Source of the DNA: Escherichia coli
GTDB lineage: Bacteria; Pseudomonadota; Gammaproteobacteria; Enterobacterales; Enterobacteriaceae
Assembly (NCBI RefSeq): GCF_003334785.1
Contig: NZ_QOWV01000015.1
Strand: one strand, 5' to 3'
DNA length: 64,000 nucleotides
The position numbers and the translations under genes are program-made. How positions within the stretch are numbered: the stretch's first letter is position 1; the number at the start of each line of letters is the position of its first letter. Below are positions 31,233 to 35,504 of this stretch, one piece after another. A model generated the notes under the pieces. It saw nothing but the letters and a program-made list of their open reading frames with translations, had not been told where the DNA came from and made no database searches.

Positions 31233-33979
<2,747 letters not shown>

Positions 33980-34002
33980 GGCATGCTCCAGGCCGAAAAA
34001 GC

Positions 34003-34659
34003 CTAGCGTAATGGAATGATATCGCCTTGCCAACCCTGTGATGAACGCTGACCGACTAACAATAATGAACCATGATCGGCGCGAACGATGAGACGACCAT
34101 ATTCATCCCATAGTGCACTGTTACCACGGGCATTTGCCATCAGCACAGCAATCGAGTACTGATGTGAAAAAAATTGTAAGCGACGGGCCGACGCCAGCAG
34201 GTCGGGTTCTCCCAGACATTGCCCTGTCGTAAACAGTGAACAGGTCGGGTCCATATCCATACCTTGCGGTTGTTCATCTACCACCGTGATGGTTCTGGAA
34301 CGACGGCCCAGACATGCACCATGACTCTGATGGTAGATCCCCGGCGTTTTTCGCCACGGTGCGAACACCGCAATTCCACGAATAAAGCGATCGTTATATT
34401 CAACGGGAAGGCCGGCAATGATGGTCATTCGCCAGGTCGTTGCGGCATAACAAAGCGGGTCTAACAGTGAGAGATCGGGTGGGGCAGGAAGGGCACGTCG
34501 CGAATAATCACACCCCAGTAAAGAAAGCGATGGAAAAACTAACAGCTGACATTGTTGCCTGGCGGCGGCCCTCACAAACTCCAGATGATGAGCTACCTGT
34601 TCGGTGAGTGAGGTTTTACGAGGCTCATATTGCGCTGCTGCAACTTTCCAGAACGACAT
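34003..34659 (-). CDS. yobB: YobB, carbon-nitrogen hydrolase (nitrilase) superfamily protein, uncharacterised
   Basis: 218-aa ORF MSFWKVAAAQYEPRKTSLTEQVAHHLEF...; immediately upstream of exoX. Confidence 0.8.
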   Translation of the reverse strand: MSFWKVAAAQYEPRKTSLTEQVAHHLEFVRAAARQQCQLLVFPSLSLLGCDYSRRALPAPPDLSLLDPLCYAATTWRMTIIAGLPVEYNDRFIRGIAVFAPWRKTPGIYHQSHGACLGRRSRTITVVDEQPQGMDMDPTCSLFTTGQCLGEPDLLASARRLQFFSHQYSIAVLMANARGNSALWDEYGRLIVRADHGSLLLVGQRSSQGWQGDIIPLR

Positions 34660-34760
34660 AATGACTTCCTTTTCAAAATGACTGCAAATTATGGGTGCGG
34701 TTTAGAAAATACTCATAATTTAGCAGGCGTTATGTAAGAAAGTGTAACTCTGTATAAGTT

Positions 34761-34991
34761 TTATTTAAGTTTGGGCTCGTAAGGTAAACGTGACAGATTG
34801 ACCGAAGCCAAACGGTGGGCAATAAGCCGCTCGCGAAACCAGCTGCGCAAATGTTCAGGCTGTTCACGTTCAACCGCTTCAGCGATCACCGGCATATTGT
34901 AGCGTTCTTTAAATGCCACCCCGGCCGCCGCCAAATCGACATTCACTTTATCCATTTCTGTTTGATCCAGTTTAGCCAGATTCTTCAGCAT
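34761..34991 (-). CDS. holE: DNA polymerase III theta subunit
   Basis: Trimmed to [35 protein letters not shown]..., 76 aa. Confidence 0.85.
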
Positions 34992-35129
34992 TCTTAATCT
35001 CCTCATCATTCGCGGGCAAAAGTTACTAAGAGTGAGCCTGGATGGCAAGCCGGAATTGATGATCCTCGACTCAGACATTAGACAAGGTTATGCTCTGTAA
35101 AAAAGTTATTACAAAAAGGAATAGATAAT

Positions 35130-35504
35130 ATGGCTTCAACTGCACGCTCCCTTCGCTACGCGCTGGCAATCCTGACCACTTCGTTGGTGACACCTTCCGT
35201 CTGGGCACATGCGCATTTAATGCATCAGTATCCTGCGGCAAACGCGCAAGTGACAGCATCTCCGCAGGCAATCACTTTAAACTTCTCGGAAGGCGTTGAA
35301 ACAGGATTCAGTGGTGCAAAAATCACGGGGCCAAAAAACGAAAATATTAAAACATTACCGGCGAAGCGAAATGAGCAGGACCAAAAGCAACTGATTGTTC
35401 CACTGGCCGATTCGCTGAAACCCGGAACCTACACCGTTGACTGGCATGTTGTTTCGGTGGACGGGCATAAAACGAAAGGACACTACACCTTTAGCGTGAA
35501 ATAA
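35130..35504 (+). CDS. yobA: YobA, CopC-family periplasmic copper-binding protein
   Basis: 124-aa ORF with signal peptide; CopC-like. Confidence 0.85.
   Translation: MASTARSLRYALAILTTSLVTPSVWAHAHLMHQYPAANAQVTASPQAITLNFSEGVETGFSGAKITGPKNENIKTLPAKRNEQDQKQLIVPLADSLKPGTYTVDWHVVSVDGHKTKGHYTFSVK

Follow-up and report, generated by a model that had tools for sequence, protein, structure and literature searches.

Why does a gene that annotation pipelines label a carbon-nitrogen hydrolase lie between holE and exoX, the genes for a DNA polymerase III subunit and an exonuclease? The three genes fall within a 64,000-nucleotide stretch of Escherichia coli DNA, hereafter the window, and the original prediction, made from its letters, treated the arrangement as an unexplained association of a predicted amidase with replication and repair. 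Two questions follow: whether YobB can be an amidase at all, and whether its position says anything about its role.

The window is E. coli chromosome. Several complete genomes carry its 1.8-kb region 33300-35100 at 100% identity, a match is present in 5426 of 5426 complete E. coli genomes, and RefSeq names the genes across it ptrB, exoX, yobB and holE. The identities first proposed for the two flanking genes hold: HolE scores 163 bits against the NCBIfam theta model NF008207 (cutoff 97) and ExoX 463 bits against the exodeoxyribonuclease X model NF005937 (cutoff 202), and RefSeq agrees. YobB reached none of the curated NCBIfam models. The tight packing on one strand is likewise borne out by the ORF list and the sequence, as all three genes run on the minus strand with gaps of 101 and 23 bp. 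The larger gap separates the holE stop from the yobB ATG; the smaller, from the yobB stop to the exoX ATG, is exactly 23 nt (GCTTTTTCGGCCTGGAGCATGCC) and includes a GGAG Shine-Dalgarno sequence. The span 34003-34991, to which the association had been assigned, comprises yobB and holE, with exoX outside it (Table 1). At the other end of exoX, the convergent ptrB (plus strand) and exoX (minus strand) genes overlap by 4 nt at 33317-33320, where the palindrome TTAA supplies the TAA stop for both.

Table 1. Features of the holE-yobB-exoX region; positions are numbered from the first letter of the window.
Feature	Position	Strand	Description	Basis
exoX	33317-33979	-	DnaQ-like 3'-5' exodeoxyribonuclease X, 220 aa	ORF, NCBIfam NF005937, RefSeq
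yobB-exoX spacer	33980-34002	-	23 nt, GGAG ribosome-binding site	
yobB	34003-34659	-	218 aa, nitrilase-superfamily protein without catalytic triad	
yobB codons 106-139	34243-34344	-	divergent 34-residue segment replacing about 53 profile positions	HMM, hhalign, MAFFT
yobB codon 44	34528-34530	-	TCG, Ser, at the position of the FPE catalytic Glu	phmmer, profile and intact-relative alignments
Reported sigma-70 promoter for yobB-exoX	34729-34756	-	motif located in window	PMC3946193
holE	34761-34991	-	DNA polymerase III theta subunit, 76 aa	ORF, NCBIfam NF008207, RefSeq

A genomic SELEX study reported an RNA polymerase-RpoD peak and a constitutive RpoD promoter in the holE-yobB interval and gave the operon as yobB-exoX, its table entry reading 'holE > yobB, operon yobB-exoX, TATACA-16-CATAAC' (PMC3946193). 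We found this motif within the 101-bp spacer of the window, with TATACA at 34756-34751 and CATAAC at 34734-34729, separated by 16 nt; it scores under the threshold of a generic promoter scan. The same generic scan for promoters and terminators between holE, yobB and exoX returned no sites, with counts under shuffle expectation, and no promoter-like or terminator-like site lies on the coding strand of the yobB-exoX spacer. An Rfam scan of 33000-35400 gave chance-level matches to eukaryotic and archaeal families and nothing else. The spacing between yobB and exoX is 23-40 nt in most genera and rises to about 70 nt in a small number of others, Pluralibacter among them. On one strand, a short distance apart, with a ribosome-binding site in the spacer and neither a terminator nor a promoter signal to divide them, yobB and exoX probably form one operon, of which yobB would be the first gene, driven by the constitutive sigma-70 promoter in the holE-yobB spacer. 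Since no terminator-like site separates the genes, read-through from holE is possible.

The fold of YobB is that of the nitrilase superfamily. The protein matches the Pfam CN_hydrolase model PF00795 in two pieces, residues 5-113 on model positions 1-112 (E 2.2e-19) and residues 116-208 on positions 149-249 (E 1.6e-6), leaving about 36 central model positions (113-148) unmatched. Of the features that define the superfamily, we found the significant PF00795 match and the four-layer alpha-beta-beta-alpha fold; the catalytic Glu of the FPE motif, the Lys with its following structural Glu, and the nucleophilic Cys are missing. The position of the Glu is fixed by phmmer and profile alignments, in which 'LLVFPSLSLLG' of YobB pairs with 'LIIFPELSVIG' of the glutaminase domain 5kha, so that Ser44 occupies the catalytic Glu column. 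A PDB search with YobB and with its family profile aligned the N-terminal 100 residues only, and the Lys and Cys columns were instead mapped through intact relatives, drawn from a search of 1.84 billion representative proteins (216 hits at E < 0.001). The hits include relatives of about 250 aa with canonical FPELSLTGY, Y-x-K-x-H-L...E and LAICAD motifs. When YobB was aligned to a profile HMM built from 24 intact relatives, the match was confined to residues 1-105 and 140-217. The roughly 53 profile positions that residues 106-139 replace hold the Lys, the second Glu and the Cys in the intact relatives, and conservation across the family is lowest in this central segment.

The alignment methods agree on the outcome in this region. 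In both hhalign and MAFFT a deletion lies over the Y-x-K-x-x-L motif and the CAD position carries no Cys, the nucleophile column being occupied by Val127 in hhalign and by Gly118 in MAFFT. MAFFT, hhalign (probability 100%) and the HMM differ in detail over the middle of YobB, and none of them puts Lys or Cys at the catalytic columns. In the first structure model of YobB the central 34 residues had a pLDDT of 46-60, and the segment could not be aligned with confidence, so that a rewired site there is structurally conceivable. We also considered whether the nucleophile might have relocated. Cys37, the only invariant Cys of the family, lies outside the active-site motifs, at the far end of the strand preceding the F-P-x loop, and was rejected. 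Cys116 was set aside too: it is common and not invariant, being Ser in Enterobacter and Ser or Tyr in several genera. Salmonella YobB carries a Lys at position 111. Judged from sequence alone, YobB has probably lost catalysis. The check for a Glu-Lys-Cys triad that accompanied the original prediction thus came out negative, since Ser44 stands in for the Glu and the Enterobacteriaceae orthologs all lack the Lys and Cys motifs, and the label of predicted amidase is probably wrong for E. coli YobB.

How a protein without the triad came to occupy this slot can be read, at least in outline, from its relatives. Close relatives of YobB are limited to Enterobacteriaceae, from which we recovered 80 species loci with yobB. 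A motif scan run on all 80 found neither Y-x-K-x-x-L nor x-C-A-D (as x-C-[AWY]-[DE]) in any of them; the same scan finds the Lys and Cys motifs in Erwinia, Pantoea and the related loci L087 and L090-L094. The residue after FP is Glu in Enterobacter, Kluyvera, Leclercia, Lelliottia, Trabulsiella and similar genera, and Ser or Ala in 29 species loci, as well as in the window, which belong to Escherichia, Citrobacter, Salmonella and Intestinirhabdus. Between holE and exoX, Erwinia tracheiphila (P0285) encodes an intact hydrolase of 253 aa and Pantoea sp. B65 (P0276) one of 247 aa. Other species, including Mangrovibacter sp. MFB070, have at this locus a protein of 234-245 aa that is near full length yet lacks the Lys and the Cys, and one full-length intermediate carries Ser at the Cys column.

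The simplest reading is that an ancestral amidase, already in the holE-exoX slot before Enterobacteriaceae and Erwiniaceae split, degenerated stepwise. In their common ancestor, an amidase of about 250 aa with the full Glu-Lys-Cys triad would have been encoded immediately 3' of holE and 5' of exoX. In Enterobacteriaceae, the loss of the Lys and Cys motifs would have come first and the deletion of about 30 residues of the old active-site region after it, with the catalytic Glu changing to Ser or Ala in the Escherichia, Citrobacter and Salmonella group; this order follows from a few intermediate forms and not from a full phylogeny. The intact clade meets no NCBIfam equivalog at its cutoff, and the closest solved structure by sequence is that of the glutaminase domain of NadE (5kha). 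The NadE of E. coli itself is of the ammonia-dependent type, which has no glutaminase domain. Homologs outside Enterobacterales have unrelated neighbors, and a search among these for shared genes that might point to the ancestral substrate gave none, the neighbors being a GNAT acetyltransferase and uvrY-uvrC in Pseudomonas and CbiX in Pseudoduganella. In two Pseudomonas sp. loci (L095/L096:5001-6202) the intact homolog overlaps the downstream GNAT acetyltransferase gene by 4 nt, followed by a uvrY-like regulator, uvrC and pgsA; this arrangement may hint at what the ancestral enzyme acted on, for instance an N-acyl or amide compound.

Taken together, these observations make it likely, in our judgment, that YobB is a degenerate pseudo-amidase of the nitrilase superfamily and that its position is inherited. 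The shortened protein keeps the alpha-beta-beta-alpha core and is held by purifying selection. Because such selection persists without the catalytic residues, a binding or structural role can be inferred, and YobB most likely acts in one of these ways rather than by hydrolysis. One observation sits awkwardly here, as the complete loss of yobB in Klebsiella and Kosakonia fits poorly with a dN/dS of 0.08 elsewhere.

The inherited position has to be weighed against the possibility that the gene order is functional, with YobB serving as a non-catalytic partner or regulator of ExoX or of theta/epsilon and its place reflecting a role with the exonuclease. We regard this as improbable. The order holE-yobB-exoX is found in all 80 Enterobacteriaceae loci with yobB and in Erwinia and Pantoea, and this retention of the linkage from Erwiniaceae to Escherichia, together with the reported operon with exoX (PMC3946193), a spacing of 23-30 nt conserved across genera and the binding role suggested by purifying selection without catalytic residues, would suit such a partnership. 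Against it, the genes have been lost separately: a Klebsiella sp. assembly and Kosakonia arachidis have no yobB, and exoX there comes directly after holE, at 78 and 11 bp respectively, whereas in Mangrovibacter and two metagenomic loci (L090/L091) the order is holE-hydrolase-ptrB and exoX is absent. Moreover, the rate of evolution of YobB is 3-4 times that of ExoX and HolE. We also predicted a YobB-(GGGGS)6-ExoX fusion with AlphaFold2 from 23 paired orthologs; its pTM of 0.52, as expected for two independent domains, is a weak negative from a crude test run without PAE or a control.

These independent losses of yobB and exoX indicate an inherited block rather than an obligate functional module. 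The surrounding block yebY-copD-yobA / holE-yobB-exoX / ptrB is conserved, and the whole of yebY to ptrB is kept equally well, so that the linkage of the three genes does not go beyond vertical inheritance of a gene block. The conserved order anticipated by the original prediction is thus real in the loci that have yobB and extends to Erwinia and Pantoea, but either gene can be lost from it, and we found no evidence that ties YobB to replication or repair. The position of yobB looks like inherited gene order, not evidence of a role in DNA metabolism.

The edges and gaps of the block vary in several lineages. In loci L054, L057 (Silvania), L086 and L088 (Mangrovibacter), the interval from yebY to holE lacks the copper genes yobA (copC) and copD, so that gene loss from the block is seen on this side of holE too. 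Phage-type integrase genes with excisionase or other prophage genes lie just past yebY in L082:474-1556, L083, L088:1622-2701 and L094:790-1506, which suggests a recurrent prophage integration site at the block edge. A small ORF of 43 or 36 aa without a Pfam match stands between holE and the intact hydrolase gene in L090:3693-3886 and L091:1015-1125. Within the block, an E. coli protein record of 218 aa (P0058), annotated exodeoxyribonuclease X, is a chimera in which YobB residues 1-108 run into the C-terminal half of ExoX at a shared Pro-Gly-Ile; it corresponds to about 33650-34659 of the window. It has the appearance of an in-frame deletion, bounded by short homologies, in which the ExoX nuclease domain was lost.

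In the literature that we searched, yobB appears in lists and nowhere else. The search turned up no study of YobB function, no comment on its missing triad, no report of amide, nitrile or carbamoyl hydrolase activity for it, and no paper on a dead nitrilase-superfamily protein. The gene belongs to the CpxR iModulon (PMC7657598), it is repressed by OmpR and its overexpression has no effect on growth (PMC5438342), and it is up-regulated in a persister transcriptome. YobB was crosslinked to AceF in a crosslinking mass spectrometry study. None of these entries points to replication or repair. An ASKA screen for H2O2 resistance (PMC8228696) has both yobB and exoX in its long list of clones with raised resistance, which could be counted in favor of a partnership with ExoX; the reported regulation, however, concerns the envelope and osmotic stress rather than DNA damage, and the AceF crosslink is the only one reported. 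On a more elaborate reading, the retained pseudoenzyme could use its old amide-binding pocket or its dimer surface to sense a small molecule or bind a protein. It could in this way adjust how much of the co-expressed ExoX is present or how active it is, or connect the CpxR and OmpR signaling of envelope and osmotic stress to DNA-end processing. We offer this as a speculation to which we give little weight.

A protein without catalytic residues might also be a decaying remnant, with no function of its own and an ORF that persists because its transcription or translation carries the expression of exoX. The stepwise loss of catalytic motifs and length, the whole-gene deletion in some genera and the rank of yobB as the fastest-evolving cytoplasmic gene of the block would all suit such decay. 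The substitution pattern opposes it. In pairwise Nei-Gojobori (NG86) comparisons of 13 within-Enterobacteriaceae species pairs, the dN/dS of yobB is 0.05-0.14, about 0.08, and the distant Erwinia-Pantoea pair gives 0.22 for the gene in the yobB slot. These values are 3-4 times those of exoX, holE and ptrB (0.01-0.06, with exoX and holE at 0.02-0.03), similar to those of yobA and copD, and far below 1. Pooled over 12 pairs, every quarter of the gene gives 0.04-0.09, the degenerate center included, which is far from neutral. In 79 of 80 species the reading frame is unbroken, although the amino-acid sequences diverge by 50%, and the C-terminal third is strongly conserved (SALWD..G.LIVRAD.G.LL..G.....GW.G.IIPL). 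YobB has moreover been detected as a protein, in the crosslinking study. By these measures yobB is not a dead gene; its product is constrained in the absence of the catalytic residues, the signature of a pseudoenzyme, and we consider decay very unlikely.

Two sets of broken copies deserve mention in this context, and both could be cited for decay. The sole disrupted copy among the 80 loci is that of Escherichia sp. MOD1-EC7003 (L031:6001-6456), which has an internal deletion of about 225 bp in yobB; the holE, exoX and ptrB genes of this strain are 98-100% identical to those of E. coli. Public protein sets hold many truncated or frameshifted YobB entries, among them clusters P0006 (736 members), P0059 and P0037, which come from metagenome- and SRA-derived sets and break at or near a homopolymer at 34167-34173 (A7 on the plus strand, T7 in yobB codons 162-164). 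Frequent frameshifting at this run was rejected as an explanation, since exact matching found neither the A6 nor the A8 allele in about 4740 complete E. coli genomes, which also counts against decay. The clusters may stem from rare, Shigella-like lineages or from assembly errors.

Least probable of all is that YobB is an active carbon-nitrogen hydrolase with modified catalytic residues: the nitrilase fold with its significant Pfam match, the purifying selection, the FPE Glu kept in most non-Escherichia orthologs, the Cys116 of many orthologs, which Pfam aligns right after the gap, and the Ser at the Cys column of one full-length intermediate are outweighed by the Ser or Ala in place of the Glu in Escherichia, Citrobacter and Salmonella, by the canonical Lys and second Glu in 0 of 80 species, by a central segment without any family-wide conserved Cys, His or other candidate nucleophile, and by a catalytic-pocket segment that is about 19 residues shorter and unalignable.

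If YobB is indeed a pseudo-amidase, the result corrects the annotation of an uncharacterized E. coli y-gene. Should YobB be unable to act as a canonical amidase, hunting for its substrate would be misdirected, and the carbon-nitrogen hydrolase label may mislead metabolic reconstructions. For replication and repair the message is negative, as there is no support for a role of YobB with theta or ExoX, and the result opens no new mechanism. The locus does present a compact natural series, running from an intact enzyme through loss of the triad and shortening to loss of the last residue or deletion of the whole gene, and this series, for which the intact Erwinia and Pantoea orthologs offer positive controls, could serve as a small model of how an enzyme becomes a pseudoenzyme under selection. 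Were the regulatory reading true, YobB would be the first case described in bacteria of a dead nitrilase-superfamily protein with a regulatory role.

We compared YobB with small stand-alone amidases of the nitrilase superfamily, namely mouse Nit2/omega-amidase (2w1v), Pyrococcus PH0642 (1j31/6ypa) and an amidase from Nesterenkonia (3hkx), and with the glutaminase domain of glutamine-dependent NAD+ synthetase (5kha). YobB is about 30-45 residues shorter than these, shares 11-17% identity with them, and is without their catalytic Glu, Lys and Cys. The hydrolases of Erwiniaceae stand closer: those of E. tracheiphila, E. mallotivora (P0270) and Pantoea sp. B65 share with YobB the slot yebY-copD-copC / holE-X-exoX / ptrB, belong to the same family (hhalign probability 100% between the alignments) and are 27-31% identical to the E. 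coli protein. Unlike YobB, however, they have 247-253 aa and keep FPELSLTGY, Y-[GA]-K-R-x-L and LAVCAD intact. In its general features YobB resembles pseudoenzymes at large, in which the fold is kept, the catalytic residues are gone and purifying selection continues.
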